64,000 nt of DNA from an uncultured Gemmatimonadota bacterium (GTDB lineage: Bacteria; JAAXHH01), in assembly GCA_951812955.1 (NCBI GenBank), contig OX638340.1, positions 2,624,001 to 2,688,000 on the forward strand, in the 5' to 3' direction. Of this stretch, positions 18,386 to 61,315 are shown one piece after another. The notes beneath the pieces were generated by a model, which was not told where the DNA came from, ran no database searches, and saw nothing but the letters and a program-made list of their open reading frames with translations. Position numbers and translations under genes: made by a program. Every line of letters begins with the position of its first letter. Within the stretch, counting starts at the first letter, position 1.

Positions 18386-18407
18386 GGCCCCGCCGCGCGG
18401 CGGGGCC
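18386..18407. repeat. Perfect 22-nt GC palindrome GGCCCCGCCGCGCGGCGGGGCC
   Basis: Self-complementary as read; lies just upstream of the minus-strand gene start 18357. Confidence 0.6.
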
Positions 18408-18606: not shown

Positions 18607-18821
18607 ACGGAGCGACCCTCAGAAAGCGCGCCCTGTTGGTCAATCACCTGTGGCCCGGAGTTCCCTATACTTCGGGCCACTTCTTTATAACGGTGTAATA
18701 TACCTTACGCGGCTTCGTTCGTCAACCTGTTTTGCGCATCATATTCTATCGTTTTCTTCCTGCTCCGCCGATCACCGCAACATGTTGTGTGCTACACATT
18801 TATTGACCTAATAACGGGTGT

Positions 18822-18914
18822 TTAGTACGTCGATAACATGCTCTTGCCGGAATCGGCTTTCTGGAGAACCTGGAGCTTGAACTCACGGAAGAACTGACGG
18901 CGTTTCAGGGACAT
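18822..18914 (-). pseudogene. IS3-family transposase OrfA N-terminal remnant (30 codons then stop)
   Basis: MSLKRRQFFREFKLQVLQKADSGKSMLSTY* resembles IS3/IS911 OrfA N-terminus (…RRxFSxEFKLxAVxLV…GxSV). Confidence 0.35.
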
Positions 18915-19069
18915 GGGGTGTCTCCTCGTTCAGAAGGAAGCTTAACTCTGTGTCCCGTTCAACGGTGCAGTACATCATTCCTACCTAACCCCGCTTTGTT
19001 GTGACGTATACTACCGTGTACAAGCTCCGCAAAATTTGTTATGTACGTCGTGTGTAGGAGATTTCAACT

Positions 19070-19483
19070 ATGGAACAAATCGTTCCCCTATTTCTGAAAT
19101 ACGAATGGTGGCAAATAGTTGCGATTTTCCTCGCCTTGAGTGCGCCGGTCGCTGTTTACTGTATTTTTAAAAACTTCAACCTAACAGAATGGCGCAAAGC
19201 TCGAGACGAAAGGCACAGGGAACGAATGCAGTCCTGCTGTCCCCACGCTGAACGTGTATTGCAAGAAAACGGTGTAGTTTATTTCAAACCACTTATAAAC
19301 TCGTCCGTAAAAACTCGCGAAGGAGTCTGTTCCGAATGTGGAAAATCCTTTCTCCACGGCAGAACTGCCGTACTTGACACTGCAGTCCATTACGAAATGC
19401 ATATCGAAACATATCAAGAACGCGCAAAGGAATACAACACACTCGCCAAAAAATACGGTAAACGACTCCTGAACGTTAAGTAA
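19070..19483 (+). CDS. Hypothetical membrane-anchored Cys-rich (zinc-ribbon-like) protein
   Basis: N-terminal TM helix; CCPH…(39 aa)…CSECGKSF… Cys pairs. Confidence 0.45.
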   Translation: MEQIVPLFLKYEWWQIVAIFLALSAPVAVYCIFKNFNLTEWRKARDERHRERMQSCCPHAERVLQENGVVYFKPLINSSVKTREGVCSECGKSFLHGRTAVLDTAVHYEMHIETYQERAKEYNTLAKKYGKRLLNVK

Positions 19484-19740
19484 ACCTGGCCTCTGTTTTG
19501 TCCCACATTCGACAATGTCTACCCTTTTCACTTTACATTCCAAAAAAGCGCCTGACCGATAACAGTAAAGTGTGTATACTTTCCGCAGACATTCCAATCG
19601 ACTTACTTACATTAACCTTATAGATTTATATATAGTTATGTGACGTAATTCGGAACAGTTAAGCAGGTATATACAAACTTGCTTTTTAAACTGCCCGAAG
19701 ATTCTACAAGTCGTTAGACGGAATTCAAAGTAAAGGTATC

Positions 19741-22422: not shown

Positions 22423-23618
22423 GTAAGAAATTTGAAACGCTATCGAAAATCGGTCTTCTTCGAATGGGAGAAACGATTATCGCAAAGGACTGTTCTGGAG
22501 ATGGTTTGCCAATCTATTCCGCAAATAAAGGGAACAAGCCATGGGCGCATTCCGACCACTTTAGATGCAAAAATGAAAGAGGCTGTATTGTCATAGGGGC
22601 AAGAGGAACTATTGGCTATCCACGTCTTCCGAAAGATGAACTGTTTGGCGCAACTCAAACCACAATCGTATTTTCTCCTGACAAAGATCATTTTATCCCG
22701 GAATTCCTGCACTACAGCCTGCAACAAGTTGATTTTGAGAGTCTCGGAGCACAGCAGGCAATTCCTATGCTCACTGTTTCCAATTTAGAGAACCTAACGA
22801 TTCGTTCGTTCAAAAAACCTGAACAATCTAAGATCGCCAAGATTCTTACAACGGTCGATCAGGCGATTGAACAGACCGAAGCGTTGATAGCAAAACAGCA
22901 ACGCACCAAGACCGGTCTGATGCAAGACCTGCTCACACGCGGTATCGACGAAGATGGAAACCTTCGCTCCGAAGACACCCATGAATTTAAAGATTCACCG
23001 TTTGGGCGTATTCCGGTGGAGTGGGTAGTGAAAGAACTAAGTGATTTTTGCGACGTAACATCCAGTAAACGCATATACTTACATGATTACAATACAGAAG
23101 GTATTCCGTTCTATCGTTCAAAAGAAATCATCGAACTGGTAAGGGAAGGAAAAACTCTTGGTGGATTATATATCACGAAAAGTAAGTATCTTGCAATAAA
23201 GCGCATCTTTGGAACTCCTAATAAGGGCGACGTACTCATTAGCTCAGTAGGAACTCTTGGAATTTGCTATTTGGTCAGGGACAACGATCGATTCTATTTT
23301 AAAGATGGAAATCTCATCTGGCTCCGTCGATTTCAAAAACATATGAATCGGATATTTTTAATAGAATTACTACCAAGGATGATCAATACCCAATTTGATG
23401 ATCTTGTGATTGGGACAAGTCAAAAGGCATTCACGATTGAGAAGCTTAAGCGTCTCAAGCTTTATTTCCCATCGACCGAGGAGCAGAATAGACTAGCGGT
23501 TTCTGTTCAACAGTTCCAAGCTAAAATCGATTGCGAGATACAAAGTCTGCAAAAACTCCGATTCCTCAAGACCGCTTTAATGCATGACCTCCTCACTGGC
23601 AAGGTTTCTGTCAGGTAG
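22419..23618 (+). CDS. hsdS: Type I R-M specificity subunit HsdS
   Basis: 399 aa with two target-recognition-domain halves and conserved central/terminal helices; ATGA overlap with hsdM. Confidence 0.8.
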
Positions 23619-23644
23619 TTAATCACAGAAGCGGAGAGCAGTAT

Positions 23645-26600
23645 ATGAGTAAAAACGAGTCTCCAGCGCACATTAAACTCGACGAAAGGAATCACGTTGA
23701 GAAGCCAATTCTTGATCAGCTTGAGGGTATGGGCTGGGAGATTATCGACCTCGACAGTCAGCAACTCCCTGTAGATACTCACCGCGAGACTTTATTGGAA
23801 GTTGTCATGTTCCCAGTGTTGCGTGAGCAACTCAAGGTCATCAATCCCTGGATAGAGAACGATCAGGTTGAAGAGGTCGTCAAGCAACTTTCTGCGAGTT
23901 TCCCAGGCACGGGGCTGACTGAGAGTAACAAGCATGTGCTTCATCTGCTGCTCGGAAACACAATCGTCAGTGAAAATCGGCAATCCGGTGAGAATAGCCC
24001 GACTGTGCGCTATATCGACTTCAAGAACCTGGACAACAACCGATTCATTGCAGTTTGCCAATTCAAAGTCCGCATCTTGGGCACGGAGAAACACATCATC
24101 CCGGATATCGTGTTATTCGTAAATGGTCTACCGGTGGTTGTAGTCGAGTGCAAGTCCCCTAAAGTAAAGGATGCCATCCCAGAGGCCATCGACCAGATAC
24201 TACGCTACAGCGAGCAGCGGGGTGACAAAGGCGAGGGAAGTGCTCCACTCTTTTATTACAACCAGTTTGTAGTCGCCACATGTCGCCAGGAGGCCAAGTT
24301 TGGGACGATAACCACGCATATTGAAAAACATTTTTTTCGTTGGGCTGATCCTTATCCAAAAACGCTCAATGATCTCGAGCATGGCTCTGGTACTCCAAAC
24401 GATCAGCAGCGCCTGGTCGCTGGGATGATGGCTAAAGATAACCTGCTCGATCTCATTCGCACCTTCACTCTGTTTTCAACCAACGATAAAGGTCAGACCA
24501 TTAAGATCGTCGGACGATATCAGCAGTACCGCGCGGTCAAAATCGCTGTTAAGCGTCTCATGGAAGGCGCGACCCCACGGGAACGCAGCGGCATCATCTG
24601 GCACACTCAGGGATCCGGTAAATCGCTGACCATGATGTTTATGGTGCGTGAGATGTACCAACAACCGAAACTGGCAAGCTGGAAAGTGGTATTCGTCACT
24701 GATCGGACACAACTCGAAAATCAGTTGAGCGAGACCAGCCAAAGCATTGGGTTCACAGTGAAGACGGCGAACAAGATCAGCGAGTTGAAGGAACTCCTGA
24801 GCACTGATACGTCGGATTTGGTCATGGGTATGATCCACAAATTTCAAGAAGACGATCTTGAAGAGACCTTCCCACAGCTAAACGACAGCCCCAATATACT
24901 GGTCATGACTGATGAAGCTCACCGTTCTCAATACAAGCTACTTGGTGCGAATCTTGACAGAGCTATACCCAATGCTGCAAAAATCGGCTATACAGGCACT
25001 CCGATTGATAAGACAGAGCAAGTCTTTGGCGACTACATCGACAAATATACCATGCGGCAGTCCATAGACGATGGTGTGACTTTGGAGATAGTCTATGAAG
25101 GTCGCACTCACAACGCGGAAGTCTCTGACCAGGAAGGTATGGATGAGGCGTTCACTGATGTGTTCAGCGATTACAACATTGAGGAAAGACTTGCAATCCT
25201 TGGCTACGGTACCCGAAGAGCCTATCTGGAAGCAGAAACAACGATTGAAGCCAAAGCCAAGGATATGATTAATCACTACCTGAAGCATGTATATCCGAAT
25301 GGCTACAAGGCACAGATTGTAGCCACTTCTCGGGAGGCTGCTGTCCGCTACAAGAAGCACGTAGACAATACCCTTGAAGCTTCAATTGCTGATCTGGAAA
25401 AATCAAATCCAAATGGTCTTGATTTGGATCTGTTAAAGTCTATTGAGACAGATGTAGTGATTTCTGGGGAAGGAAACGATTTAAGTCATCTAAAAACATA
25501 CTCAAACCCGACCAAGCACGAGAGTAGCATCAAAAGTTTCAAGATGGATTTCGGTGGTGAAGTTGACGGTCTTCATGGAAACATGGGAATACTTATTGTC
25601 AATAACATGCTTATCACGGGATTCGACGCCCCTGTAGAACAGGTTATGTATTTGGACAAAGTCATTTTTGGCCACAACTTGTTGCAGGCCATCGCAAGGG
25701 TAAATCGTGTTGCAGGTGAGGCCAAGGGTAAAGGCTTTGTAATCGATTATGTTGGGATTGGTCATAACCTAAAGAGGGCAATTGATCTTTATGATAAGAA
25801 AGAAAAGAACGAAATCATCGATACACTTGTTTTTCCTGAAGAAGCATTGCGTGAATTGGAGGATAGCCATGCCGAGATCTTAGCTTTTCGGGAAGCGAAC
25901 GGCTTAGAGGAATTGGCAGACTTGGATGCATATTACGATGTGTTTTATGATGAGGCACTACGTTTTGAATACATGCAGTCTTTCAAGAAGTTCACTAGGA
26001 ATCTGAATTCAGTGTTCCCAGCTAGGCAGGCTTTGGAATACATGGACGAATATAATGTATACGCTGAAATCAACACACTTGCTGGAAAGCATTTTAGAGA
26101 TGAACGATTAAGTATGAAGGGAATCCCACCGAAGCTCCTCGCAATCACAGACAAGTACTTGGTGTCAGAAGGTATACATCAGCAGGTCAAACCAGTCTCA
26201 ATTTTGGACGATTCATTCCAAGAATCTGTTAACAGCCATACACGTACAAAGACAAAAGCAGCTGAAATCGAGCATGCTATTCGACACCACCTAGATGTAG
26301 AATTGAATGACGATCCAGATTTGCAGGCATCCTTTGCAGAAGCGCTTGCTAAAATACTGCAAGAGTTCAAGGACAATTGGAGCAAGGTTTACGAGGAATT
26401 GGAGAAGTTACGACAGCGTATCATCAACGTTAGTAAAGAGCCCACATATGGGCTTAGTCGAAAAAAACAGATGCCATTCTTTCGATGTTACAAAAGGGAG
26501 ATGTTTGGCGAAAATGAGCTTAATGAAGATGAGATTTCACTTCTTGTCGACTTAACTAAGCAGGTATTTTCTGTGATAGAACTTGAGCTGAAGTTGATTG

Positions 26601-26773
26601 GTTTTTGGGAAAGCATTTCTGCACGCAACAAACTAAGGGCTGAAATTCAGAAAAAACTGCTTGGATCTACTTACGCGGCATTACCACACATAGTAGAGAA
26701 AAAAGACAGCATTATCAGCCGCACGATGGAGATCGCGGAGAAGAACAACGATATCATACTTTATGCGGAATAA
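23645..26773 (+). CDS. hsdR: Type I restriction enzyme R subunit HsdR (EcoKI-like endonuclease/helicase)
   Basis: 1042 aa; SF2 helicase motifs (TQGSGKSLTM Walker A, MTDEAHRSQY DEAH box); HsdR N-terminal nuclease region (VVVECKSPK). Confidence 0.9.
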   Translation: MSKNESPAHIKLDERNHVEKPILDQLEGMGWEIIDLDSQQLPVDTHRETLLEVVMFPVLREQLKVINPWIENDQVEEVVKQLSASFPGTGLTESNKHVLHLLLGNTIVSENRQSGENSPTVRYIDFKNLDNNRFIAVCQFKVRILGTEKHIIPDIVLFVNGLPVVVVECKSPKVKDAIPEAIDQILRYSEQRGDKGEGSAPLFYYNQFVVATCRQEAKFGTITTHIEKHFFRWADPYPKTLNDLEHGSGTPNDQQRLVAGMMAKDNLLDLIRTFTLFSTNDKGQTIKIVGRYQQYRAVKIAVKRLMEGATPRERSGIIWHTQGSGKSLTMMFMVREMYQQPKLASWKVVFVTDRTQLENQLSETSQSIGFTVKTANKISELKELLSTDTSDLVMGMIHKFQEDDLEETFPQLNDSPNILVMTDEAHRSQYKLLGANLDRAIPNAAKIGYTGTPIDKTEQVFGDYIDKYTMRQSIDDGVTLEIVYEGRTHNAEVSDQEGMDEAFTDVFSDYNIEERLAILGYGTRRAYLEAETTIEAKAKDMINHYLKHVYPNGYKAQIVATSREAAVRYKKHVDNTLEASIADLEKSNPNGLDLDLLKSIETDVVISGEGNDLSHLKTYSNPTKHESSIKSFKMDFGGEVDGLHGNMGILIVNNMLITGFDAPVEQVMYLDKVIFGHNLLQAIARVNRVAGEAKGKGFVIDYVGIGHNLKRAIDLYDKKEKNEIIDTLVFPEEALRELEDSHAEILAFREANGLEELADLDAYYDVFYDEALRFEYMQSFKKFTRNLNSVFPARQALEYMDEYNVYAEINTLAGKHFRDERLSMKGIPPKLLAITDKYLVSEGIHQQVKPVSILDDSFQESVNSHTRTKTKAAEIEHAIRHHLDVELNDDPDLQASFAEALAKILQEFKDNWSKVYEELEKLRQRIINVSKEPTYGLSRKKQMPFFRCYKREMFGENELNEDEISLLVDLTKQVFSVIELELKLIGFWESISARNKLRAEIQKKLLGSTYAALPHIVEKKDSIISRTMEIAEKNNDIILYAE

Positions 26774-26776
26774 CTG

Positions 26777-27460
26777 ATGAACGTGGACTATACAGTAAAG
26801 CGATCGCATAAGCGAAAGAAGCTGACAATTACAGTTGAGCGTGACCGGCAGGTTGTGATCTCCGCTCCCGAGTCAACTTCTGAGGAGGCAATTAGAAGAT
26901 ACATCGAATCGAAACGCCAGTGGATTTACGAGAAGTTGAATCACCTGCAGAAATACGAAACTCAACCTCATCCGCCTGGTAAGGAATTAGTAAATGGTGA
27001 ATCTACGCTTTATCTTGGCTCCGAGTATCAGATCCAGATTATCACTAGCAGTACGACTGAGATACGATTAGAGCAACGTTTTCTAGTTCCGAATTCTTTG
27101 GCGGGAGAAAGAAGGAAGGTATTTCAAAAATGGTATGTCGACCGGGCTAAAGAGAACATATTACCAAAAGTAAAATCGTTCGCCAGTATGCTCGGAGTGG
27201 AGTTTGCCAATGCGAAGATCATGGATAGTCGCTACCGTTGGGGCTCTTGTACAATCAAAGACAACATCAACTTAAACTGGCGTTTAATTAAAGCACCTAT
27301 GTTCGTAATCGACTATGTAGTAGTTCACGAACTCGCACATCTGATGGAGGCAAACCACACCTCTCGATTCTGGAATATCGTTAGGACGCACGCACCATTG
27401 ATGGAAAAGGCTCAAAGATGGCTTAAAGAAAATGGCCAGATACTCGAACAGGATATCTAG
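26777..27460 (+). CDS. YgjP/DUF45-family metal-dependent hydrolase (HExxH, WLM/SprT-like)
   Basis: HELAH zinc motif in YVVVHELAHLMEANH; 3 nt after hsdR stop; family frequently linked to hsdR. Confidence 0.75.
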   Translation: MNVDYTVKRSHKRKKLTITVERDRQVVISAPESTSEEAIRRYIESKRQWIYEKLNHLQKYETQPHPPGKELVNGESTLYLGSEYQIQIITSSTTEIRLEQRFLVPNSLAGERRKVFQKWYVDRAKENILPKVKSFASMLGVEFANAKIMDSRYRWGSCTIKDNINLNWRLIKAPMFVIDYVVVHELAHLMEANHTSRFWNIVRTHAPLMEKAQRWLKENGQILEQDI

Positions 27461-27525
27461 CGCGCAGTTCGAATAAACCAGTATCAGGTATTAACTGAAT
27501 CGTCGATTCATCCGCTTTTTTTAGA

Positions 27526-27921
27526 TTATCCGCATCCGCACACCAGCGCCTTACCCTCGGTGGCCTGCAGCCCCTCGGTTTCGTAGCCGTCCCGCATCCA
27601 CCAGTCCAGCCCGCCAATTAGTTCCTTTACGTTGAAACCCAACCTCGCCATGTTGAGCGCGCCCTTGGTCGACGCGTTGCAACCGATCCCATCGCAATAG
27701 GTTACGTACAGTGATTTTTTGTTCAGGTCGGCCGTGGAATCGGGATCCATGGTCCGGTGGGGAATGTTAACGGAGCCGGGGATATGCCGTTCGGTGTACG
27801 CTTCGGCGGACCGCGTGTCCACTACGACGATGTCATTGCCCAGGGTGATGGATTCCCACAGGTCGTAGGCATCGATCTCGTATTTCAGCTTACTCTCGTA
27901 GTGGGTAATCTGGTCTTTCAT
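27526..27921 (-). CDS. Single-domain rhodanese-like sulfurtransferase
   Basis: Active-site Cys loop CDGIGCNAS; ATG 27921 with GAGG SD; visibly GC-richer than its island neighbours. Confidence 0.65.
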   Translation of the reverse strand: MKDQITHYESKLKYEIDAYDLWESITLGNDIVVVDTRSAEAYTERHIPGSVNIPHRTMDPDSTADLNKKSLYVTYCDGIGCNASTKGALNMARLGFNVKELIGGLDWWMRDGYETEGLQATEGKALVCGCG

Positions 27922-28271
27922 TGTGCCTCTAACTGGTATGAGCCAAAGTGGGTGGTTCTGCGACACATCTATCTTAGGGAATACAAGAAGCTACCCAGCT
28001 CATTTCTAGTATAACAAATTAGCGTGCTGGATAGTGTATTCGTCTCAATTCTTCTTTAGGTTTATAACGCGGTTGGAATTTCTATACACGGCCATCAAGC
28101 CGAAAAATCCAGTTTATATTAGGAGTTGTGTCTGAAACTTCGGACCTATGGCGGGCATTACTCGCGAGGATTTGTAAATCTTTATATAAAACTAAACTCA
28201 AGTTACTCGCCCAATCTATCGATTAATGGTTTCATCTTAGCAGTTGATGTTTAATCTGAAATGAATGGATA

Positions 28272-29018
28272 TCAATGGACAAGAGCTTGAAACTCTTTCC
28301 CATTCATAGGCTTGTGTTTCGTCCAGCTTCCGCTCATTTCAACCAGGATTCGCTGCATCCATGAGTATGAATCAGAGGTGTAGATTTTCAGCACTCTAGC
28401 TTTGTATTCGGGATGTTCTTTCATAGCTTTAGTTAAATCATAAACCAAGTAACGAGGTGACCAACCAATCATGTGATAATCTAAAGTCTGGATTTGAACT
28501 GCCACCTTTGATACAGGATTGGTTAGTTCCAAGGTTACATACAACGGTTCATCTTCCTCTAATTTACTTAATCGGTTCTTTGCCGGTTTATTGATATGTC
28601 GAGTTCCGTGAAGAAAAAACCGGCACGTAAAGCTACCATCCGCTTCCTTGCGGATTTTCGGAAACACCTCATATGAATCAGTTACACGATTACCTCCATT
28701 AATGGATAGGATCTCAATTGGATCTGCTTCGTCACAGAGATCAAACCCCTTAAGGTAGTCCTCAAATTCTGGCCTCGATCGATTCAGAATTCGATTCTTA
28801 AATAACGGAAACAACTCCTTTGATGTATATTCATGGTCGAAACTAGGGAATTCAACCAGTGGAGCGAATCGTGCTTTTTCCATTGCCCGTTTTGCGCCGT
28901 AGATATAACGAAACTTAAAGAAAGGTTCGTTGATATCGGCATCAAGTCGACCTACGGGATACCATTCTCGGGTTGTTACCTGATCTTGCCAAGCAAGAAA
29001 AAGTGTTCTGAAGTTCAC
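28272..29018 (-). CDS. Uncharacterised 248-aa partner of the HipA-like kinase; N-terminal region weakly HipA-N/HipS-like
   Basis: GTG start overlaps kinase stop (GTGA); N-terminal …REWYPVGRLDADINEPFFKFRYIYGA…FPLFKNRIL… loosely resembles the HipA N-subdomain (V-G-L, F-x-Y, …F.NLLPE…) pattern. Confidence 0.45.
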   Translation of the reverse strand: MNFRTLFLAWQDQVTTREWYPVGRLDADINEPFFKFRYIYGAKRAMEKARFAPLVEFPSFDHEYTSKELFPLFKNRILNRSRPEFEDYLKGFDLCDEADPIEILSINGGNRVTDSYEVFPKIRKEADGSFTCRFFLHGTRHINKPAKNRLSKLEEDEPLYVTLELTNPVSKVAVQIQTLDYHMIGWSPRYLVYDLTKAMKEHPEYKARVLKIYTSDSYSWMQRILVEMSGSWTKHKPMNGKEFQALVH

Positions 29019-29905
29019 GAATCTATCTCCAATAGTTTTTGACGGTTATATAACATTAAATTCATTGCGAATTGTCGGGCGTGTATGCTCATCCAATCAT
29101 CTGGAATACGATTAACGATTTCCTCAAGGCTGCTTATGTCAAGTTGGTAGAGTCTTTGCAAAACGGAACTAAAAGACTCCGGTAGTTCATTGAATGTAGT
29201 GCGCACGACGCCAAGGGGGCTTAGCCCTCTAGTGTCTTCGCTAGACCTGTAAATCGGGCTTCGACCTTTTTCGGCATATTGTCCAACTCTATCCTCATCT
29301 AACAATCGAATACGCCTGTCATCATCGATTTCTCTTCCCAGAGACGATGCGTGGTCATATGACGGTGCCATAGTTTTCGACACCATAGAAAAATCCATCA
29401 AAACTCCCCAGTTTTCGTGATGTCGATCAGTGTTTCCAATAAACGCATCTAAGATTATGTATTCACAGAAAGTTTGTTTTGCACTATCGGCTTTTTCTTG
29501 TTCAAATACTGTCTCAAGAACGCTCCAGATATTAAAGATGGTATGGTCTGATTGCTTTTGTGTCTTTTCTGGCTCATATTCATTAAATATAAAACTCAGA
29601 AGTTGGTTACCATGAATCAGTTCATGGTAACGATCGGTAAATGACTTGGTAGCTGTTCCTTTGGTTTGCCTGAAAACGGCTAATTCGACGATTGCATGTG
29701 GGATATTGAGTAATTCTGCAACTTCAGATGCAACCTTTTCAGCCCAATGTTCGCCCCTACTCTCTCGATGGTATTTAAAAAGCCATAGTTCATCTTCAGA
29801 TTCGGATCGATTGAACCAGAATTTAGGTTTGCTTCCCATTTCTTCCTGAAGATACTGGTCTTCCTTAATTTCCTCGATCTGATAGTCATTCAACTTCCGC
29901 CCCAT
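29015..29905 (-). CDS. HipA-C-domain (HipT-like) Ser/Thr kinase, stand-alone kinase core
   Basis: Gly-rich loop MGSKPKFWF (cf. HipA GAQEKTAL), catalytic ILDAFIGNTDRHHENWGVL (cf. HipA ATDGHAKNFS), APSYDHASS (cf. HipA TPFYD); 296 aa, lacks HipA N-subdomain. Confidence 0.75.
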   Translation of the reverse strand: MGRKLNDYQIEEIKEDQYLQEEMGSKPKFWFNRSESEDELWLFKYHRESRGEHWAEKVASEVAELLNIPHAIVELAVFRQTKGTATKSFTDRYHELIHGNQLLSFIFNEYEPEKTQKQSDHTIFNIWSVLETVFEQEKADSAKQTFCEYIILDAFIGNTDRHHENWGVLMDFSMVSKTMAPSYDHASSLGREIDDDRRIRLLDEDRVGQYAEKGRSPIYRSSEDTRGLSPLGVVRTTFNELPESFSSVLQRLYQLDISSLEEIVNRIPDDWMSIHARQFAMNLMLYNRQKLLEIDS

Positions 29906-30794
29906 TTTTCTCGGTCTATGTCATTGGGCCTTAACATCCTGTTTTGCAATATCCAATGCGATGTTTGTTTTTTACGGTCCATCCCCAGTCACTAATGCGT
30001 CCACTTATGGCCTTTGGACAGATAAATTGCATGTCCTCGGTTTCCTCGGCTCGGTAGGAATCCTGCCGACTTGGACCACACGTCATTTCACGTCTGAGTG
30101 GCGGTTTTCACGACATGGCCCTCCAGTATGTGTCATTTCCTTATTTAACGCTATTAAACCAAAAAGTACCAGATGAACTGCAGGTGCTCCTCCAACTTGT
30201 CTGAGCACGTTCAATAGATCTCGATCATAATTTCGACTAAGTCTACGACAGTCATCCGTATTTCGCAATCCTTTCTCAAGCCGTAGAGCGGTGAAGTTAC
30301 GATCAGTTTTGAAACTGTCGTCTGGGAAAATTGCTATATATGTAAAATGTCTTCGTAGACTAGGTTTAGCGAAAAACTAATTACATCACGACTAGACTTG
30401 TCTGTGGATTTGCCATCATAGTCTGGCAATTTTCACCAATGTCTACCCAGGTAGACACATACTCTGGGTGACTCCTTTCGGGATGAAGGCGGACAGGTCC
30501 GCCCTGTCCGACCGAACATAAATCTTTGTTCGGTATTGCAATTATACGGTTTTCCGGGGGCCATAGCAATACTAAATTGAACAGGTACTATTCAGATGCG
30601 ATTTCTAATTGATACACATCCGCGTGTTGATCAGTACAGGTCAATATACTGGTCAATACCGTCTTGCTGTCTTGACCGTACAGCACTTCTTTTTCTAAGC
30701 ATTCCCACGCTTACTATAGAAAGTGTTTCAGTTTCTTTGGCGAACCATTTCCGTCAAATCGGTGATAATTCACCTCCATCGACAACAGGGGTAA

Positions 30795-32453
30795 TCTCAC
30801 ATTTCTGCTAATTACCTAAGCCTTAAAACCACCATCCAGTGGATCGGCCTGATCGCCGGTCCAGTCGTGGCGATCCTGCTCTACAGCCAGTTGCCCCATG
30901 CGTACATGAGCGGCACGGGCGAGGTGGTGGCGTTCTCGAACGCCGGCCGTGCGACATTGGCCCTGGCGGTGTGGATGGCGATCTGGTGGATGACAGAGGC
31001 CGTCGAGCTTTACGCCACGGCATTGTTGCCCCTGGTCGCCCTTCCGTTGGCCGGTGCGTCACCGGTGCGGGAAGCGGCCGCTCCCTACGCACACGAGTTG
31101 ATCTTCCTCTTCATGGGCGGTTTTCTCATCGCCCTGGCCATGCAGCGATGGGGGCTCCACCGACGCATGGCGTTCAAGGCCCTGCGTGCGGCCGGCGACC
31201 ACCCGGCGGGCATCGTGGCGTGCTTCATGGGCGTGACGGCCTTTTTCAGCATGTGGGTGTCCAACACGGCCACCGCGGTCATGATGCTCCCCATTGCCCT
31301 CAGCATCATCGCCTTGGTGGAGCAGGTGGAACCCGGTAGCGTGGCAGGCGGCGCTGGAAACGGCAGCACAGATAACAATGGTGCAGGAAGCGGAAATTCT
31401 GCCGCCGGAAACGGTGGCCCCGGAAGCGGCGTAGCAGTAGACGGTGACACGGGCAACGGCGGCCCCGGAAACAAAGGGCCTGAAACAAAGACGCGGCCCC
31501 ATTTCGCCCTGTGCCTGCTTCTGGGCATCGCCTACGCCGCATCCATCGGCGGGATCGGTACGATCATCGGCACGCCGCCCAACGTATTCCTCGCGTCCTT
31601 CATCCAGTCCAACCTGGGCCAGGAGATCAGCTTCGTCCGGTGGATGGGCGTGGGACTTCCCCTGGTGGCCGTTTTCCTGCCGCTGACGTGGCTGATGCTG
31701 ACCCGAGTCCTTTATCCCCTTCGGGCCGTGCGCATCGAGGGAAGCCGGGAGGTGACGGATAAGGCCTACCGGGAACTGGGCTCCATGTCGCGGGGGGAGA
31801 GGGTCGTGCTGGCGGTGTTCCTCCTCGCCGCCGTATCCTGGATTGCCCGTCCGTTGCTGGTCCAGGTCCAGATAGGTGACCTGACCCCGCTGGCCGGTCT
31901 GTCCGATCCGGTCATCGCCATGGTTGCGGCGCTGGCCCTCTTCGTCGTGCCGGTGGACGTAAAACGGCGAATCTTCGTGATGAACTGGGAAACGGCCGTG
32001 AAGCTTCCCTGGGGGATCCTGCTGCTCTTTGGAGGTGGGCTCAGCCTGGCCGCGGCCATCCGGGCCAATGCCGTGGGGGAATACATCGGGCACCAACTGG
32101 CCTTCCTGTCCGGCATCCCCACGCTGCTGCTCGTTATGGCCGTCATCGCGCTGGTGATCTTCCTGACCGAACTGACCAGCAACACGGCCACCACGGCCAC
32201 GTTCATCCCCATCCTGGCCGCCCTGGCGCCGGTTTTCGACCTGCACCCCTTCATGCTGATCGTGCCGGCCGCCATCGCCGCCAGCTGTGCCTTCATGCTG
32301 CCGGTCGCCACCCCGCCCAACGCCATCATCTTCGGTTCCGGTCACGTCACGATCCAGCAGATGATCCGCGCGGGGTTCTGGCTGAATCTGACCGGCGTCG
32401 TACTGATAACCTTGCTCGTATACACCGTGATGATGCGGATGCTCGGGGTCTGA
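30795..32453 (+). CDS. DASS (SLC13-like) divalent anion:Na+ symporter family transporter, 5' end removed at the island junction (no canonical start before GTG 30867)
   Basis: VSNTATAVMMLP DASS signature; in-frame open from 30795 with homology starting …IQWIGLIAGPVVAILLY (TM1) immediately at the GC shift; G/N-rich low-complexity loop. Confidence 0.7.
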   Translation, partial: SHISANYLSLKTTIQWIGLIAGPVVAILLYSQLPHAYMSGTGEVVAFSNAGRATLALAVWMAIWWMTEAVELYATALLPLVALPLAGASPVREAAAPYAHELIFLFMGGFLIALAMQRWGLHRRMAFKALRAAGDHPAGIVACFMGVTAFFSMWVSNTATAVMMLPIALSIIALVEQVEPGSVAGGAGNGSTDNNGAGSGNSAAGNGGPGSGVAVDGDTGNGGPGNKGPETKTRPHFALCLLLGIAYAASIGGIGTIIGTPPNVFLASFIQSNLGQEISFVRWMGVGLPLVAVFLPLTWLMLTRVLYPLRAVRIEGSREVTDKAYRELGSMSRGERVVLAVFLLAAVSWIARPLLVQVQIGDLTPLAGLSDPVIAMVAALALFVVPVDVKRRIFVMNWETAVKLPWGILLLFGGGLSLAAAIRANAVGEYIGHQLAFLSGIPTLLLVMAVIALVIFLTELTSNTATTATFIPILAALAPVFDLHPFMLIVPAAIAASCAFMLPVATPPNAIIFGSGHVTIQQMIRAGFWLNLTGVVLITLLVYTVMMRMLGV

Positions 32454-47333: not shown

Positions 47334-47365
47334 GGCGTTCTTCTCCCGCTCGGGAAGCTCCGGTG

Positions 47366-47578
47366 TCAGCGGTCAATCTGATGGTCGTCGGAAATCCGGA
47401 GATGTCCTTCGTCCCTACCCAGGTGGGTATTCCTATCGTGCATTTCGATTCGAACCTCGGAGAACTTTACGTTCATTTCAGTTCGTAACTCTTCAATATC
47501 GTCTCGCAGGGAGGCGATGTCCTTCCGGATAGCAATGGTAGAACGCCCCATGAAGGTCAGGATCGCCACGACCAGCAC
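47366..47578 (-). CDS. Small membrane protein (copy 1 of a duplicated gene)
   Basis: 70 aa, N-terminal [14 protein letters not shown]; 3' portion contains the ~67-bp repeat shared with copy 2. Confidence 0.35.
47412..47479. repeat. Direct repeat copy 1 (~67 bp, identical to 48997-49064) flanking the phosphotransferase cassette
   Basis: ccctacccaggtgggtattcctatcgtgcatttcgattcgaacctcggagaactttacgttcatttc read at both sites. Confidence 0.85.
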
Positions 47579-47683
47579 ACCACGGCTGTGATCCCCTGCA
47601 TTTACTAACCTGTGTTTTCCGTATTTAAAAGCATTATATCATGTTTTTGACTTTATGATGGAGACTTCGGAAAGTATTCCCTT

Positions 47684-48781
47684 TTACGCCTCGGTTAAAC
47701 TCAAATCCGTGATTGCTGCAATAAATCTCTCGGACACTGCTCGTGCGAGTCTGTTTTCTCGGTCATTTTCCGGATTCAAAGAAGCTACCATAAGTACAGC
47801 CTGGATAAAATAACGTAGCATGGCGAGACGGTAGTCTTTCCAGCAATCATCCAAGGTGTATCCTCTGACTCCATTGGCCTTCAGGGTTTCATGGTAGAAT
47901 TTAAGGAGTTGGCGTTCTTCGGCTTGTCGTTTTGGTGTGGTTTTTAAACATCCACCGATATACCATGCGATATCCGAAACGCCCTCTCCGCACGATACGT
48001 CCTGCCAGTCGATCACGGCGAAGCCCGGCTCTCCAAGAGAAGCACCAAAAAACACGTTCTCCAAACGAAAATCTCCGTGAACCATGGTTCTCGGCGGTTT
48101 ACCCAATTGGGATTCATTTTTTAACTTCTCGGGTAATTGTTTTCCAAATGTCTTGACTGCATCCGTCATCAAGTCTTCAGTTTTATCGGCAAAGACTGGA
48201 AAAGCTTCTTTATACTGATCAAGGATCCAATTCGAAACAGCGTCAGAATCCTTCGGCGAATTCGCCAGCCAATCAAACGCTTCGAGTCTTTTGTTTTCCC
48301 ACCAATAGGCGTGAAACCTGGCTATTTCGTGGAGAGCATGTGCCGTCTCTTTCATTGTACTTCCACTGATTTGATCTCCAACTTTCGCGGGAGCAAGGTC
48401 TTCAAGAATCCTGATGTACTTTCCATGAGTAACACTCATCGCACTGAAATAACAGAGGGGTGTGCGAAGGGGTATCTCGCTGGCAATTTGCTGATAAAAC
48501 AAAATCTCGCACTTATCTGGTGTAGGTAGACGCGTTTTTGCTCGTAGAGGCTCATCTGGTGCATGTAGTTTGGCAATCAGCTTTTTGGGCAGTTCTGATT
48601 GAGGTTGATTAAAGCCAAGGTGCAAGCGTGCTAACTGTCCGTCACAAGTCAATTCTGCAATCGGCTCGATACGAAGCGAGGCTATACCGACATTCGAAAA
48701 CGTATTTGTTGAAACTAGTGCTGCGGTGAGCCAATGAGATGTTATATCCAGAGGTGTATTGGGAATACTCAAAAGAGTCAT
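47684..48781 (-). CDS. APH/choline-kinase-like phosphotransferase (kinase-like fold, HGDxxxxN)
   Basis: …MVHGDFRLENVFF… Brenner motif; …VIDWQDVSCGEG…; AT-rich relative to surroundings. Confidence 0.65.
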   Translation of the reverse strand: MTLLSIPNTPLDITSHWLTAALVSTNTFSNVGIASLRIEPIAELTCDGQLARLHLGFNQPQSELPKKLIAKLHAPDEPLRAKTRLPTPDKCEILFYQQIASEIPLRTPLCYFSAMSVTHGKYIRILEDLAPAKVGDQISGSTMKETAHALHEIARFHAYWWENKRLEAFDWLANSPKDSDAVSNWILDQYKEAFPVFADKTEDLMTDAVKTFGKQLPEKLKNESQLGKPPRTMVHGDFRLENVFFGASLGEPGFAVIDWQDVSCGEGVSDIAWYIGGCLKTTPKRQAEERQLLKFYHETLKANGVRGYTLDDCWKDYRLAMLRYFIQAVLMVASLNPENDRENRLARAVSERFIAAITDLSLTEA

Positions 48782-48996
48782 CAGAATTCCAGCCGCCTAG
48801 ATGTAGCCGAATAACGAGCACGCTTACTACATCAGTGTTCGAGAGGAATAACCAGTAATGAGTTACAGGTTTATGATATGGCGGTGCCAATTACACAGAA
48901 CTACAGACTCAAACAACGGCGCTGAGATCACCGTTCGCCCTTACTGTGGTCGTTGGAATTCGTAGATCTCCTTCGACCGTACCCAGGCGGTTATTC

Positions 48997-49064
48997 ACCC
49001 TACCCAGGTGGGTATTCCTATCGTGCATTTCGATTCGAACCTCGGAGAACTTTACGTTCATTTC
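48997..49064. repeat. Direct repeat copy 2 (~67 bp)
   Basis: Identical to 47412-47479; preceded by an extra 20-bp imperfect duplication (tacccaggcggttattcacc / ctacccaggtgggtattcc). Confidence 0.85.
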
Positions 49065-49207
49065 TGTCCGTAGCCCTTGAAATCGTCCCTCAAAGTCCCG
49101 ATGTCTTCCCTCAGAGCGTTTGTCGAACGCCCCAGGAAGGTGGGGATCGCCACGACCAGCACGCCGACAGCAGTGATTCCTTGTATGAATATGCCGAGTG
49201 ATTCCAT
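49058..49207 (-). pseudogene. Small membrane protein copy 2, frameshifted relative to copy 1
   Basis: MESLGIFIQGITAVGVLVVAIPTFLGRSTNALREDIGTLRDDFKGYGQK* ; 1-nt difference from copy 1 puts the shared repeat out of frame. Confidence 0.4.
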
Positions 49208-49311
49208 GACCAGGATGTGTGGATGAGAGTTTAGGAATTATGACACACTAACTATATCAGTGTGAGAAGTCCTGGAAATCTTGGTGGTTTTTTAATTTTT
49301 AAAAAAGGACC

Positions 49312-54577: not shown

Positions 54578-55441
54578 TCACCCGACCAGGCGGCGCAGGT
54601 ATTCGCAGTACGCGTTGTCTTCCACATAATTTCCGATCTTCAGCACCTGGTCCCGGTCGATGTACCCCTTCCGGTAGGCGATTTCTTCGACGCAGCCGAT
54701 CTTCAAGCCCTGCCGGTGTTCGACGGCCTGGACGAAATTGCTCGCCTCCAGCAGGCTTTCCGGCGTGCCGGTATCCATCCAGACGATCCCTTCGTCGAAC
54801 CGCTCCACCTTCAGCTTGCCCCGCTGGAGATAGATGTTATTCACATCGGTGATCTCGAGTTCTCCGCGGCCCGATGGCCGCAGCGTTTTTGCAATGAATA
54901 CGACTTCGTTGTCGTAGAAGTAGAGCCCCGTGACGGCGTAGTTGGATCGTGGATTGCGGGGTTTCTCTTCAATGCCGACGACGCGCTCGTGCTCGTCGAA
55001 TTCGACCACGCCGTACCGTTCGGGCTCCTTGACGTAGCAGGCGAAGACCAGTCCTCCGTCTTCGTGCTGCGCGGCCTTTTCGACGATCTCGGTCAGGTTG
55101 CTGCCGTAGAAGAAGTTGTCTCCGAAGATCAGTGCACATGATTCATCGCCGATAAACGATTCCCCTATCAGAAAAGCCTGTGCCACCCCCGCGGGCGCGG
55201 GTTGTATGGCATATTCGAAGTGCATCCCGAGGGCGCTGCCGTCGCCGAAGAGCCTGCGGTACAGGTCGATGTGATCGGGAGAGGAAATGATCAGGATTTC
55301 CCGAATCCCCGCCATCAAGAGGACCGACAGCGGATAGTAGATCATCGGCTTGTCGAAGATGGGGATGATCTGCTTCGATATGGCCTGGGTCTGCGGGTAT
55401 AGACGCAATCCGTGCCCACCCGCGAGTATGATGCCCTTCAT
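54578..55441 (-). CDS. rfbA: Glucose-1-phosphate thymidylyltransferase
   Basis: Starts MKGIILAGGHGLRLYPQT; 288 aa; the 51 upstream ORF codons lack homology, so start set at ATG 55441. Confidence 0.85.
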   Translation of the reverse strand: MKGIILAGGHGLRLYPQTQAISKQIIPIFDKPMIYYPLSVLLMAGIREILIISSPDHIDLYRRLFGDGSALGMHFEYAIQPAPAGVAQAFLIGESFIGDESCALIFGDNFFYGSNLTEIVEKAAQHEDGGLVFACYVKEPERYGVVEFDEHERVVGIEEKPRNPRSNYAVTGLYFYDNEVVFIAKTLRPSGRGELEITDVNNIYLQRGKLKVERFDEGIVWMDTGTPESLLEASNFVQAVEHRQGLKIGCVEEIAYRKGYIDRDQVLKIGNYVEDNAYCEYLRRLVG

Positions 55442-55761
55442 TTGTGGTCTCCGGTTGTCGTAGGGGCGACTAGCACTAGAGGATCCTGTTTTAGGTGTCA
55501 TACACGCTTTCACAAGTTGAATTGCAAAAGATGGACAAGCGAAGAATCGCTGGACTGAGCACATCAGCAAAAAACGCGAAGTTGAATCCGGCAAGCCGAT
55601 TCTTTTTACGAGGCTACAAATCTGTTTTCGACTAAGTTTGTAGTCAAAGTAAACGCTTCATGCCGTAAAAAACACATGTCATTTTTTAAAATTAGAAACA
55701 ATCGCAATCGAAACTGGAGATAAACCACCCCTCATCGAACTCAAAAGCAAAGAAGCGACAT

Positions 55762-56650
55762 ATGGCTGATGACTCTACCACGACTGCTATACCACCAAAA
55801 CAACCGGATACGAGTAGTTCGATTGCAATTAAGTGGCTTCATTCCAAGCTTGTGGAGATTGAAGACCATACATGCATGGATGCGTTAACGATATTTGGTC
55901 CCATAACGGAAACAGTAGATCATCGAGTCAGGTTGGCGATCGAGAGTTTACCGAATCACCGCAACGGCTTGTTGGTCATTATCGATACACCCGGTGGAAT
56001 TGTAGAGGTAGCCGAACGTATTGTAACCACTATCAGGCATTACTACAAAGAGGTCAAGTTTCTCATACCTGATAAAGCGATGTCAGCAGGTACGGTTCTG
56101 GTGATGTCTGGAGATGCGATATTGATGGATCACTTTTCTTGTTTAGGCCCAGTTGATCCACAGTTGTATATCGAAGGCAAACCAATCCCGACGTCTGTCC
56201 TTTCTTATCTTGAACAATATGAACGATTTGTTCAAAAATCCATGGAAGGTACCTTGACGAGTGCTGATTTGGTTCTGCTTCAAAAGCTTGACGCTGCTGA
56301 CTTACGACAGTACGAACTGGCGGCCGAGTTATCTGTGCGCCCGTGATTGGCTTGTTCGGTATAAATTCAAGGATTGGTCCAAGCACAGTTCCACAGGGAA
56401 CACGGTTTCAAAAGAGGAAAAAACAATCCGTGCCGAAGAAGTTGCGAGAGCGCTTAATGATCAGGAAAGATGGGGTACCCATGGAAGGGGAATAAACCGA
56501 GAAGTTCTTGTCAAATTAAAGCTCAAGATTGATAATTTGGAATCCGATACTGAATTAAGTAGTCTAACAAAAGAGTATTTCTGGTTTTTTAGAGACTTAG
56601 CATTCAAAGAGGAGTCGCAAAGTCTTGTACACAACCGGTTATTCATCTGA
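55762..56650 (+). pseudogene. SDH-family (PF01972-like) Clp-fold serine protease, apparently frameshifted (55762..56346 frame A then 56261..56650 frame B)
   Basis: LLVIIDTPGGIVEVAERIVTTIRHY…KAMSAGTVLVMSGDAILMDHFSCLGPVDPQL matches the family core; frames A+B sum to the family's usual ~290 aa; AT-rich. Confidence 0.55.
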
Positions 56651-56660
56651 GAGGAATATC

Positions 56661-56882
56661 ATGAAAACAAATGACAAACTTGTCCTCACTAAGGAACAAC
56701 TGGTTGAGAACCCCGCTGTCAATCCCGGGATTGTAAAAGAAGCGCTGAAAATGCGCCTTGAACTGGAGCGTTTAGGAGTATGGGATAACAGTGGGACACG
56801 TGTGGTATCGCCTTCCGAAATCAGGCCAGCTAAGAATCCCATCGGGAATATCAGACGTCGGTCTATTTCTCAAATCCGGTAA
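56661..56882 (+). CDS. Hypothetical small protein
   Basis: 73 aa from MKTNDKLVLTKEQL; AT-rich like the preceding protease gene. Confidence 0.3.
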   Translation: MKTNDKLVLTKEQLVENPAVNPGIVKEALKMRLELERLGVWDNSGTRVVSPSEIRPAKNPIGNIRRRSISQIR

Positions 56883-57015
56883 TCCTAGCCTGCAGCCGTA
56901 TTATCCTCAGGTATTAAGTCCTTGTTCCGGATTCAATACCCATACTGAATGGTTTGATTAGGCAGTAGCGAAGAAAACGAGCCCGCCCGTTCCTCACCCG
57001 CTCTTCACCCGCTCT

Positions 57016-58065
57016 TCATCCACTCCTCACCCACTCCAGATCGAACCGGACCAACTTGATCGTCTCGTAGGGATGATCTTCTCCCCGTTCATAGAGGCAG
57101 GCGACGGTACCGTCTGGAAGCACGGCGAGGGATGAATAGGCGGACGGCCCGGGATGCAGCACCTTTTCACGTGGCCAGGATCCGCCGGCTTCATCGGAAA
57201 GTCTCACGGTCAGGTTACACCGCTCGTCCCGGCTGGCCGGATTCGAGAACAGCAGGCGGTCGCCCGCGCCGGGATACCGGACGAGGGCCGCCTGGCAGAT
57301 CGGTTCGATCAGCGTTTCGTCGTGGCGCTGGTTACGCCACGTCATCCCGCCGTCTCCGCTGACGGCGAACTGCCTGGTGCGCAAGGCCCGGTCGTAATTT
57401 CGCATGTTGAGCAGGACGTCGCCGTTTTCCAGCTCGGTGACGCAGCATTCGTTGACCTGGTCTTGCAAAGTCGTGCCGCCCATCCGCCAGGTTTCCCCAT
57501 GGTCTTCGCTGTATATGACATGAGAATAGTAGCGTTTGGTGCTTGCCTCTATGTGGTCGCAGGGTATCAGCATCCGGCCCGACGATAGCTGAATTCCGTT
57601 GCCCGGTCCGGTGGCGTACCACGTCCAGTCCGCGCGCTTCGCGGTGGAGGTGATATCCCGCGGTTCGCGCCACGTGCGGCCGTCGTCTTCGCTGGCCGTG
57701 ACCCAGACGGTCCGTGAGCCCTGGCTCGTCCCCTCGATGATCTCGGATTCGCGGTCGATCCCCATGTTGTGGGTCATGAGCAGCCATACTTTCCCGGTCT
57801 CGCCGTCTACCACCGGACAGGGATTGCCGCAGGTATTCCCTGCGTCCGCCCAGACCAGCTCCTGGTCCGACCAGGTGCGCCCGCCGTCTTCGCTCCGCTT
57901 CACCAGCATGTCGATATCGCCGGTGTCGCTTCGGCTGCTCCTCCGGCCTTCGCAGAAGGCGAGGACCGTACCCCGGGTTGTCGCGATGATCGCTGGAATG
58001 CGGTAGGTATCGTAACCTTCCGTGCCGCTGGTCCAGATATCGGATTGTTTACAGGAGCCGCTCAT
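57016..58065 (-). CDS. Exo-alpha-sialidase (GH33, BNR/Asp-box repeats)
   Basis: YRIP motif (YDTYRIPAI) and Asp-boxes SEDGGRTW, SEDDGRTW, SGDGGMTW. Confidence 0.85.
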   Translation of the reverse strand: MSGSCKQSDIWTSGTEGYDTYRIPAIIATTRGTVLAFCEGRRSSRSDTGDIDMLVKRSEDGGRTWSDQELVWADAGNTCGNPCPVVDGETGKVWLLMTHNMGIDRESEIIEGTSQGSRTVWVTASEDDGRTWREPRDITSTAKRADWTWYATGPGNGIQLSSGRMLIPCDHIEASTKRYYSHVIYSEDHGETWRMGGTTLQDQVNECCVTELENGDVLLNMRNYDRALRTRQFAVSGDGGMTWRNQRHDETLIEPICQAALVRYPGAGDRLLFSNPASRDERCNLTVRLSDEAGGSWPREKVLHPGPSAYSSLAVLPDGTVACLYERGEDHPYETIKLVRFDLEWVRSG

Positions 58066-58164: not shown

Positions 58165-60120
58165 TCAGTTGAATATGATGTGCCCCGTTATGCCCGTCAA
58201 TCCATCTATGATGACCCATAGGCCTGCGCTGACGAACTCGCCGAGAATCAGCCCCAGGAAGAAGGGCAGCATCTTCCGATAGATGTCGATCCCACCGTAC
58301 TTGAGGATGAGTCCCTTGATCATCCAGGCGAGGAATATGGAAAACCACGCGGTGAGGAGCGGGGCGGAGGCGCCAACGGGAAATCCGATGAAATGGAGGG
58401 GCCACCAGATGAACTTCTGCCTCACGTACATAAGCGCCCACATGATGGTAGCGCCCAGACCGAAGAAGAACCATCGCCCGGCGGGTTCGGACGTGGAGGT
58501 GATGGTGGTCGCATAGTAGCTGAACCGGTTCTGCTGAAGCTCTCCGAAGAACTGCCAGTTGAGGTTGATGCCGCCGTGTTCATAGGCCAGGTACATGACC
58601 GTGTAGATCGAGCTGGCCAGGCTGCACAGGATGGCCAGGCCGATGGCCGCGGTGAGCCAGCGCTGGTTCCGGATCTTCGCCGTATCGGCCAGTTTCAGGC
58701 CGTTGACCATTGAGGGCATGATGAGCGTTCGGGTGTGGGTGAACCAGAACTTGGTCAATCCGATGGCCACCAGGTTGCGCGCGCCGACGAAGGGGCCGGT
58801 GAATCCGTGGATCATGAACTCCTGGGGATTGAAGGTCTCCGCGAAGATCACGCCCCCTTCCGCCACGATCCGCGCGAAGCCGACGTAGACCGCGAGTACC
58901 AGGATCAGCAGAATGATGGCCAGCCAGGCGGAGAGGCCGATCATCCATAGCCAACCGAGCAGGAACAGGACGCCCAGTCCCCCGCCGATCACGGCGAAAC
59001 GGTAGGAAAGGCATTCGTTGGAGTCGTCCGGCTCGCCGCCTCCGCGGAACGCCTTGCCCAGGATCTCGCGGATATGCGCCCGGGCCAGCCAGAGACTGAA
59101 CAGGGCGAGGACCATCAGCGCGCCGAACATCTGGTATTCACCCGGCAAGGTGGTACTGCCCGCCAGGTCCACGCCGAAGCTCGCGTTTACCAGGTTTTGC
59201 AATCGCCCGATGAGAAAGAAGAGCCACAGGCTGAATGAAATCTCGAGACTGAGCAGATAGGCGAAGCCCACCAGCGGGAACGACAGGTTGATGGGCAGCA
59301 CCAGCTGGTTGTTGAAGAGCCCGATGGTCTCCTGGAAGTAAATTGTCGGGAAAAAGTAGATATAGTTGTGTACGGCGTTCCAGGCGTTGATCAGGAAGGG
59401 AATGGCGAACCCCGCCCACATGATCCGGTTCCGGAAGAACGACGCAAGGCGGGAACTCGACCCATCCTCTCCCGGATCGATCATCTCGGCGGGCAGCTTG
59501 ACCAGGGGGAAGACGAGACGTTCCCGTTCCACCCATTGCTTGCGCAGGATTACGGTGATGCAGAACACCACGAAATATAGCACCAGGACGAAACTCAGCC
59601 AGGCGGCCAGGGGTACGGCCCATTCGCCCCAGGGGATGCTCCCGCCCCGGGGCAGGCCTTCGAAGAACGATCGCACCGCCTCGGAGTCCTGGGGCATCAG
59701 CCAGGGCTCGACATGGGGCCCCACGGTCTCGAGCCAGCGGTTCTCCGGCGTGGCGTAGTACATGGAGGCCATGGCCGGCAGGAGGACCTCGGTCAGGCCG
59801 TAAGACGGGATGGCCGACGCGATGAGCGACATGATGTAGACGACGGCCAGTTCGCCCTGCGTGAGCGCGTGGCCCGGCGACCAGGTCCGCAGCAGCGTGT
59901 TCACGATTCCGACGAGGACGGCAAAGAGGAAGACCACGCCGATTGGGGTGAAGTTGCTGCCCAGGTACGATCCCTGGATGATCATATTGGAATAGGGATC
60001 GGCGATACCCAGGATCAACGAGCAGGCCATCCCCACGGCCACGGCGCGAGGGGTGACCATCTCCCTCGGCGTAGATACGTGATGTTCATCCCGGGATGTA
60101 ACTGGACGGGGGACCGACAT
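58165..60120 (-). CDS. Large polytopic membrane protein of unknown family
   Basis: 651 aa, >12 hydrophobic segments, no recognised transporter signature. Confidence 0.5.
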   Translation of the reverse strand: MSVPRPVTSRDEHHVSTPREMVTPRAVAVGMACSLILGIADPYSNMIIQGSYLGSNFTPIGVVFLFAVLVGIVNTLLRTWSPGHALTQGELAVVYIMSLIASAIPSYGLTEVLLPAMASMYYATPENRWLETVGPHVEPWLMPQDSEAVRSFFEGLPRGGSIPWGEWAVPLAAWLSFVLVLYFVVFCITVILRKQWVERERLVFPLVKLPAEMIDPGEDGSSSRLASFFRNRIMWAGFAIPFLINAWNAVHNYIYFFPTIYFQETIGLFNNQLVLPINLSFPLVGFAYLLSLEISFSLWLFFLIGRLQNLVNASFGVDLAGSTTLPGEYQMFGALMVLALFSLWLARAHIREILGKAFRGGGEPDDSNECLSYRFAVIGGGLGVLFLLGWLWMIGLSAWLAIILLILVLAVYVGFARIVAEGGVIFAETFNPQEFMIHGFTGPFVGARNLVAIGLTKFWFTHTRTLIMPSMVNGLKLADTAKIRNQRWLTAAIGLAILCSLASSIYTVMYLAYEHGGINLNWQFFGELQQNRFSYYATTITSTSEPAGRWFFFGLGATIMWALMYVRQKFIWWPLHFIGFPVGASAPLLTAWFSIFLAWMIKGLILKYGGIDIYRKMLPFFLGLILGEFVSAGLWVIIDGLTGITGHIIFN

Positions 60121-61204: not shown

Positions 61205-61315
61205 CCGATTCCGTTTAATCGAGTTTTGCTTGTCATGATCGCGCCGGCCGGGTTATTATACCGTTCTGACTTTCGCAATCACAGGATACTCAATCTACAA
61301 CAAAGAGGTCGACCC

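Follow-up and report, generated by a model that had tools for sequence, protein, structure and literature searches.

Clp-fold serine proteases differ in their catalytic residues: ClpP carries its triad in the order Ser-His-Asp, SppA has a Ser-Lys dyad, and the SDH family is defined by the order Ser…Asp…His. For the SDH family no functional study was found in the searchable literature and the profile libraries hold nothing functional, as the sequence-only reading of the present locus had already noted in calling the family one with no assigned function. Other proteases belong to the accessory genes of prophage immunity regions, where ImmA-type anti-repressor proteases adjoin ImmR, in the same way as rexAB adjoins cI. 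A further setting relevant here is the hma operon region, which has been described as a hotspot for defence-gene insertion (PMC11232893), and Hma has been reclassified among DUF499-centred BREX-related systems (PMC12839542). The main text of these two papers makes no mention of a Clp-fold or SDH protease, and the cassette described below, consisting of an SDH-type protease and a small partner, has previously gone unremarked, as has its Hma/BREX-related association across phylum labels.

The window, i.e. the whole 64-kb stretch of DNA analysed here, contains one such protease gene, which is broken into two reading frames (Table 1). Frame A corresponds to residues 1-193 of the intact relatives (99% identity to residues 1-193 of P0001), followed by a proline and a premature TGA. 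Frame B, which as a mechanical ORF spans 56261-56650 (129 aa from a GTG at 56261), overlaps frame A by 86 nt (56261-56346). In a tblastn comparison of the L001 protein with the window, frame 1 aligned with residues 1-193 and frame 2 with residues 196-297 (97% identity). The conceptual fusion of both frames measures 295 aa, and the intact relatives have 297 aa in one frame; the sequence-only reading, which had given roughly 290 aa, had described the two frames correctly and had put the break near residue 190. Its SDH-family assignment holds at the Pfam level: frame A scores 62.0 bits against PF01972 (“ClpP-like SDH-type serine proteinase”; cutoff 31.3), compared with 61.3 bits for the intact P0001, and the core motifs IIDTPGG, AMSAGT and GPVDPQL are all intact within frame A. 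Against the NCBIfam equivalog NF047768 (Clp_like_SDH) frame A reached 66.6 bits, well below the curated cutoff of 250. Frame B alone has no match in Pfam or NCBIfam, because the intact relatives too match PF01972 only over residues 44-154; its missing family match is therefore not counter-evidence to homology. One relative with 75% identity (P0032) is named “SDH family Clp fold serine proteinase” at NCBI.

Table 1. Features of the window and their coordinates (positions count from the first letter of the window).
Feature	Position	Strand	Remark
HsdM	19741-22422		type I R-M operon in the 17,000-31,000 island
HsdS	22419-23618		type I R-M operon in the 17,000-31,000 island
HsdR	23645-26773		type I R-M operon in the 17,000-31,000 island
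YgjP-like metallopeptidase	26777-27460		type I R-M operon in the 17,000-31,000 island
Weak HIRAN-like ORF	28272-29018	-	17,000-31,000 island
HipA_C kinase ORF	29015-29905	-	17,000-31,000 island
EcKL/APH-type kinase ORF	47684-48781	-	inside the 47,351-49,309 insertion
rmlA	54581-55441	-	left neighbour of islet
AT-rich islet	55466-56960	.	composition profile; L006 DNA homology
Frame A, N-terminal protease pseudogene fragment (probable)	55762-56346	+	194 aa; PF01972, 62 bits
Deletion junction	56341-56342	+	TCATT of L001-L004 absent; MAFFT alignment of window vs L001-L004
Frame B, C-terminal protease fragment	56342-56650	+	homologous to residues 196-297
GAGG, Shine-Dalgarno-like motif	56651-56654	+	6 nt upstream of partner ATG, read from sequence
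73-aa partner ORF, intact	56661-56882	+	homologues directly downstream of protease
BNR sialidase gene	57016-58065	-	right neighbour of islet

Three residues, Ser108 (codon 56083-56085), Asp132 (56155-56157) and His242 (56480-56482), are invariant among 25 aligned relatives with identities as low as 49%, as is Leu194. Along the chain they follow each other in the order Ser, Asp, His that characterises PF01972, and all three codons exist in the window. They do not form part of one continuous polypeptide, however: Ser and Asp are encoded in frame A and His in frame B, and between the two halves lie a 5-nt deletion and the stop codon at 56344-56346. Judged by homology, the gene is an SDH-type Clp-fold serine protease with the triad Ser108-Asp132-His242 and predicted proteolytic activity.

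The fold predicted for an intact relative (AF2 model, pLDDT 85.7, pTM 0.82) is of the ClpP/crotonase type, with SppA, ClpP and 1510-N as its best PDB matches in Foldseek. The likeness of the predicted fold to ClpP (S14), SppA (S49) and the NfeD-type 1510-N was given a probability of 1.00 and an E-value of about 1e-5, although identity is only 11-24% and TM only 0.3-0.6. By sequence, ClpP was the sole PDB match (E = 3e-4), and an alignment with the ClpP sequence puts the nucleophilic Ser in an equivalent G-x-S-x-G-like turn (AMSAG). In contrast to all three structural neighbours, the protease has an extra helical C-terminal region of about 110 residues that bears the His, and neither a partner ATPase nor a membrane anchor is evident for it; its Ser-Asp-His arrangement also sets it apart from ClpP and SppA. 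Within its own family, it differs from the PF01972 and NF047768 descriptions by a divergent C-terminal half and by the obligate small downstream partner of its subclade, which has not been described for the family.

Alignment to full-length relatives, as had been advised, located the frame break exactly after residue 193. Where L001-L004 read GTGCGCC-TCATT-CGTGATT, the window reads GTGCGCC-CGTGATT, so that the codons of the invariant Leu194 and of Ile195 are lost and the frame is shifted by +1. At the protein level, ELSVR-LI-RDWLV of the intact relatives becomes ELSVRP-stop in frame A, and frame B resumes with RDWLV, so that His242 is no longer read in the frame of Ser108 and Asp132. No homopolymer, repeat or microhomology was found at the junction. 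In the AF2 model the lesion falls in the middle of a helix (residues 178-203), and the final third of the modelled fold is lost with it. Translation would reach the stop two codons past the deletion; the 194-aa product would retain Ser and Asp and would lack His242 together with this C-terminal third. The partner ORF is left intact.

A search with the conceptual fusion recovered about 60 full-length relatives of 297 aa, and an exhaustive search extended the set to 187 representatives at 50% identity (E <= 1e-30) and 784 at E <= 1e-10. One of these relatives, P0001, is 98% identical and is encoded in three independent assemblies (L001-L003). Intact, single-frame orthologues of 297 aa are present in L001, L002, L003, L005 and L006, and the deletion is absent from all five. 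When substitutions were polarised with L006 as outgroup, the window branch received six derived synonymous changes and none that was both non-synonymous and clearly derived, which indicates that purifying selection acted on the gene up to the time of the lesion. Either this lesion is very young or it is not real. A fourth related assembly, L004, from a sibling population and taken from contig_9643 of ERZ19489075, carries a lesion in the same gene that represents a different 5-nt event, a tandem duplication of AAAGA at L004 position 5,804 (window ~56,046). Over ~1.8 kb the L004 islet otherwise departs from that of L001 by one mismatch and one other 1-nt indel, and the remaining L004 indels relative to L001 are all intergenic. 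This independent lesion suggests that the orphan protease gene is dispensable, or under relaxed selection, in this lineage.

Taken together, the locus is probably a two-gene cassette from a mobile gene pool, the protease of which has been inactivated very recently by the 5-nt deletion; this account, which presumes that the deletion is biological and not an assembly artefact, makes the gene a genuine recent pseudogene. Such a pseudogene had been one of three options named in the sequence-only reading, and the absence of the deletion from the sibling assemblies supports it. Another of these options, a sequencing error of a single base, was ruled out, since the difference from four related assemblies amounts to 5 nt in a non-repetitive site. 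An artefact of another kind is conceivable, in which the gene is intact and assembly or polishing dropped five bases, or a minor strain variant entered the consensus. The frameshifted allele and the frame-B product are known from only one public contig (the source contig of 3,813,436 bp), the gene-position index has no entry for the exact product of frame A or for the sialidase next to it, and the junction sequence was not found in JGI metagenomes in either allele; moreover, an intact gene would likewise show no derived non-synonymous changes at all. Against this, no homopolymer or repeat lies at the site, and the loss of 5 nt is not a typical sequencing error. In the ~17 kb common to the window and L001, all 17 of the 17 matching neighbour orthologues are intact and in a single frame, so that the window assembly does not appear indel-prone, and an independent 5-nt lesion is found in the same gene of the otherwise clean assembly L004. 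An artefact is thus considered unlikely, though still a reading to be reckoned with.

The two remaining explanations would preserve a functional protease from the genuinely broken gene. Programmed +1 ribosomal frameshifting, the third option of the sequence-only reading, would join both frames into the full-length enzyme, and would suit the 86-nt overlap as well as the position of the frame A stop, right where the homology of frame B begins. The slippery heptamers that had been suggested as a check were not found, however: the stretch 56258-56346 contains neither an X XXY YYZ heptamer nor a +1 re-pairing codon, the downstream RNA fold is not unusual (z = -1.04) and matches no Rfam element, the shift is absent from all relatives, close or distant, the lesion of L004 lies at another site, and the joined product would lack the invariant Leu194 in mid-helix. 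In view of the missing slippery site, stimulatory structure and conservation, this mechanism was rejected and is given practically no credence. A split but functional gene, in which the 194-aa N-terminal fragment and a C-terminal fragment initiated separately at GTG 56261 reassemble into an active enzyme, draws on GTG as a possible start codon, about 13 nt downstream of a GGAAGG stretch, and on the full conservation of both fragments, but the latter is equally well explained by a very young lesion. Because the break interrupts a long helix at the cost of an invariant residue, because the C-fragment would begin with 27 out-of-frame residues, and because no relative is split at this position, we regard such reassembly as very improbable. 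Phase variation through repeat slippage was also ruled out for the window, as the junction shows no repeat or microhomology and the two-copy duplication of L004 lies at a different site.

The small ORF that follows the protease has an alternative TTG start at 56625, which would extend the product to 85 aa. The GAGG motif in front of its ATG abuts the stop codon of the protease (56648-56650) and may serve in translational coupling of the two genes. A homologue of the partner directly follows the protease on the same strand in 84 of the 87 loci examined, and the fixed order and strict co-occurrence of the pair across distant hosts are those of a two-gene module of the toxin-antitoxin-like or defence-like kind. 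In a Latescibacterota MAG (L007), an IS4/5-family DDE transposase (6,994-7,809) has inserted between the two genes. The partner has no match in Pfam, PADLOC or PHROG, and all its named homologues are annotated as “hypothetical protein”. The family is recognised by an N-terminal NPxxD motif and a helix, and in its wider membership also by a GGYxLxPALGG-like tail; the AF2 model, which shows two helices and a low-confidence tail, has a pLDDT of 61, too poor for a fold search. On the basis of this conserved linkage, the 73-aa ORF is a real, hitherto unannotated partner of the protease in this subclade. Three partner homologues from Poribacteria (P0172, P0184, P0241) carry the C-terminal motif G-A-D-Y-N-L-x-H-P-L-A-S-x-D-x-P-T-D-A-Y-H twice in tandem, which is reminiscent of multi-core precursor peptides.

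Both genes lie in an islet with a GC content of 0.42-0.47 over about 55,470-56,960, compared with 0.57-0.65 in its flanks, in line with the AT-richness noted earlier; the islet is not unique in this respect, as larger low-GC islands occur elsewhere in the window. The order rmlA(-), protease(+), small ORF(+), BNR sialidase(-), DUF6785(-) is common to the window, L001-L003 and L004. Among the loci of the genome scan, only L005 and L006, each labelled “MAG: bacterium”, have the flanking genes of the window; their neighbours are 76-99% and their proteases 86-98% identical. In L006, a diverged sibling, the islet occupies the same slot between rmlA and the sialidase gene with flanking proteins only 76-95% identical, and DNA homology ends at 55465 on the left and resumes in the islet at 55762. 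Judging from these comparisons, the cassette is inherited vertically within the lineage of the window. Horizontal acquisition, as proposed in the sequence-only reading, is thus upheld as to the foreign origin of the AT-rich segment with its 73-aa ORF, the cassette being common to several phylum labels (see below), and not as to any recent date: the same slot in diverged siblings makes the acquisition old relative to them. No terminal direct or inverted repeats that could mark the boundaries of a mobile element, and no convincing promoter or terminator, were found for the islet. At its right edge (56,982-57,036) the window shows a 22-nt insertion compared with L001-L004, and three copies of a 13-nt TCCTCACCCGCTC-like motif are present in this interval at spacings of 11 and 22 nt; both features are located at the 3' end of the sialidase gene and just downstream.

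Outside this lineage, MAGs labelled Latescibacterota, Opitutales, Dehalococcoidia, Candidatus Foliamicus and Longimicrobiales were found in the genome scan to encode the pair with 70-81% protein identity, and many others with 44-56%. Many of the hosts may be sponge-associated, to judge from names of candidate taxa such as Poribacteria, Poriferisodalis and Spongiihabitans. The flanks of the other-phylum loci are unrelated to those of the window, and in all of the loci measured (20 of 20) the GC content of the gene was 4-20 points below that of its flanks. Eight of the ten other-phylum loci in the clade of at least 70% identity (L007-L016) contain Hma components according to PADLOC. HmaB (DUF1156 methylase, E = 1e-112) and/or HmaC (DUF499 ATPase, E = 1e-99) flank the pair in L007-L012, L015 and L016, and a SNF2/NOV_C helicase is additionally present in L012/L086. 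The pair is mostly found between HmaB and HmaC, in the company of AAA_15/AAA_21+DUF3696 ATPases and DUF433/DUF5615 toxin-antitoxin genes. In its placement and in the inserted modules that accompany it, the cassette resembles the cargo of the published “defence gene insertion hotspot” (PMC11232893). The window copy is unlike such cargo in being without Hma genes: no homologue was found anywhere in the 64-kb window, nor any Hma relic in the non-coding flanks of the islet; homology to the other-phylum copies is limited to 55762-56891.

In a distance tree the copies of the host lineage formed a clade with 100% support, placed among the Hma-embedded copies. Opitutales were nested inside Latescibacterota, so that the gene tree departs from taxonomy, and deep nodes were poorly supported. 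By parsimony, and given these weak deep nodes, the window cassette could be the remnant of a Hma-embedded ancestor. In the lineage of the window (58,165-60,120 in the window) as in the Hma-embedded Latescibacterota locus L085 (14,385-14,894), which covers the same stretch as L009, the cassette is followed at a distance of a few kb by a DUF6785 gene.

In the more distant bacterial loci no fixed third partner gene was identified among the 145 nearest neighbours. Recurrent among them were restriction-modification methylases, DDE transposases, AAA_15/21 ATPases, DUF1156 proteins, HTH regulators and SNF2/ResIII helicases, together with many housekeeping genes. IMG/VR contributed 172 relatives at 36-49% identity, the nearest neighbours of which were mostly CI-like repressors, other lysogeny regulators, integrases and N-like antiterminators, a setting that corresponds to the prophage immunity region. 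By their position next to CI-like repressors and integrases these viral relatives may be compared to accessory immunity genes such as rexAB and ImmA, although there is no homology to Rex or ImmA and the viral copies are mostly without the small partner. Since just 2 of 77 viral loci have the partner behind the protease, the pairing cannot be generalised to the whole family.

The cassette probably belongs to a low-GC mobile gene pool, in which its closest relatives outside the lineage reside in Hma (DUF499/DUF1156/SNF2) anti-phage operons and more distant ones in prophage immunity regions. In the lineage of the window it is an orphan between rmlA and the sialidase gene and, once orphaned, may have been free to decay. 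By guilt by association, the protease may act on or with its partner in a role related to defence or to mobile elements; no defence model of PADLOC-DB 2.0 matches either of the two proteins. We tentatively propose, with more doubt than confidence, that the protease and its largely disordered partner of ~70 aa constitute a self-contained switch of two genes that has not been described before. The protease would bind or cleave its partner, or act on some substrate or inhibitor, and the switch would be part of the mobile defence gene pool, passed between bacteria of different phylum labels as Hma/BREX-related cargo and with relatives in prophage immunity regions. Its mode of action may resemble that of toxin-antitoxin or abortive-infection systems or may be regulatory, to the benefit of whichever mobile element or defence island it is carried on. 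If this were true, the broken copies of the window and of L004 would show that the module is dispensable or costly away from a defence operon. The frameshift in itself matters little, as it amounts to one more recent pseudogene, or to an assembly flaw, in a protease family that is known but uncharacterised, and the gene is best annotated as disrupted. Its context defines a PF01972-like subfamily with an obligate partner, a recurrent home in Hma/BREX-related operons and prophage immunity regions, and a signature of transfer across phylum labels.

Several other segments of the window also stood out. A low-GC island at 17,000-31,000 (GC 0.40-0.49), much larger than the islet, contains a complete type I restriction-modification operon with a YgjP-like metallopeptidase gene, followed by the two minus-strand ORFs listed in Table 1. 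At 47,351-49,309 there is a low-GC insertion of ~2 kb, where the same interval in L001 comprises only 200 bp. Conversely, the window lacks at 61,209-61,301 a block of ~4.6 kb that is found in L001 (15,475-20,065) and in L004; in L001 this block contains ORFs of 78, 223 and 255 aa and a HATPase_c_4 gene, and in L004 a SLFN_AlbA_2/HATPase_c_4 gene, which makes this site another variable spot in the same neighbourhood.
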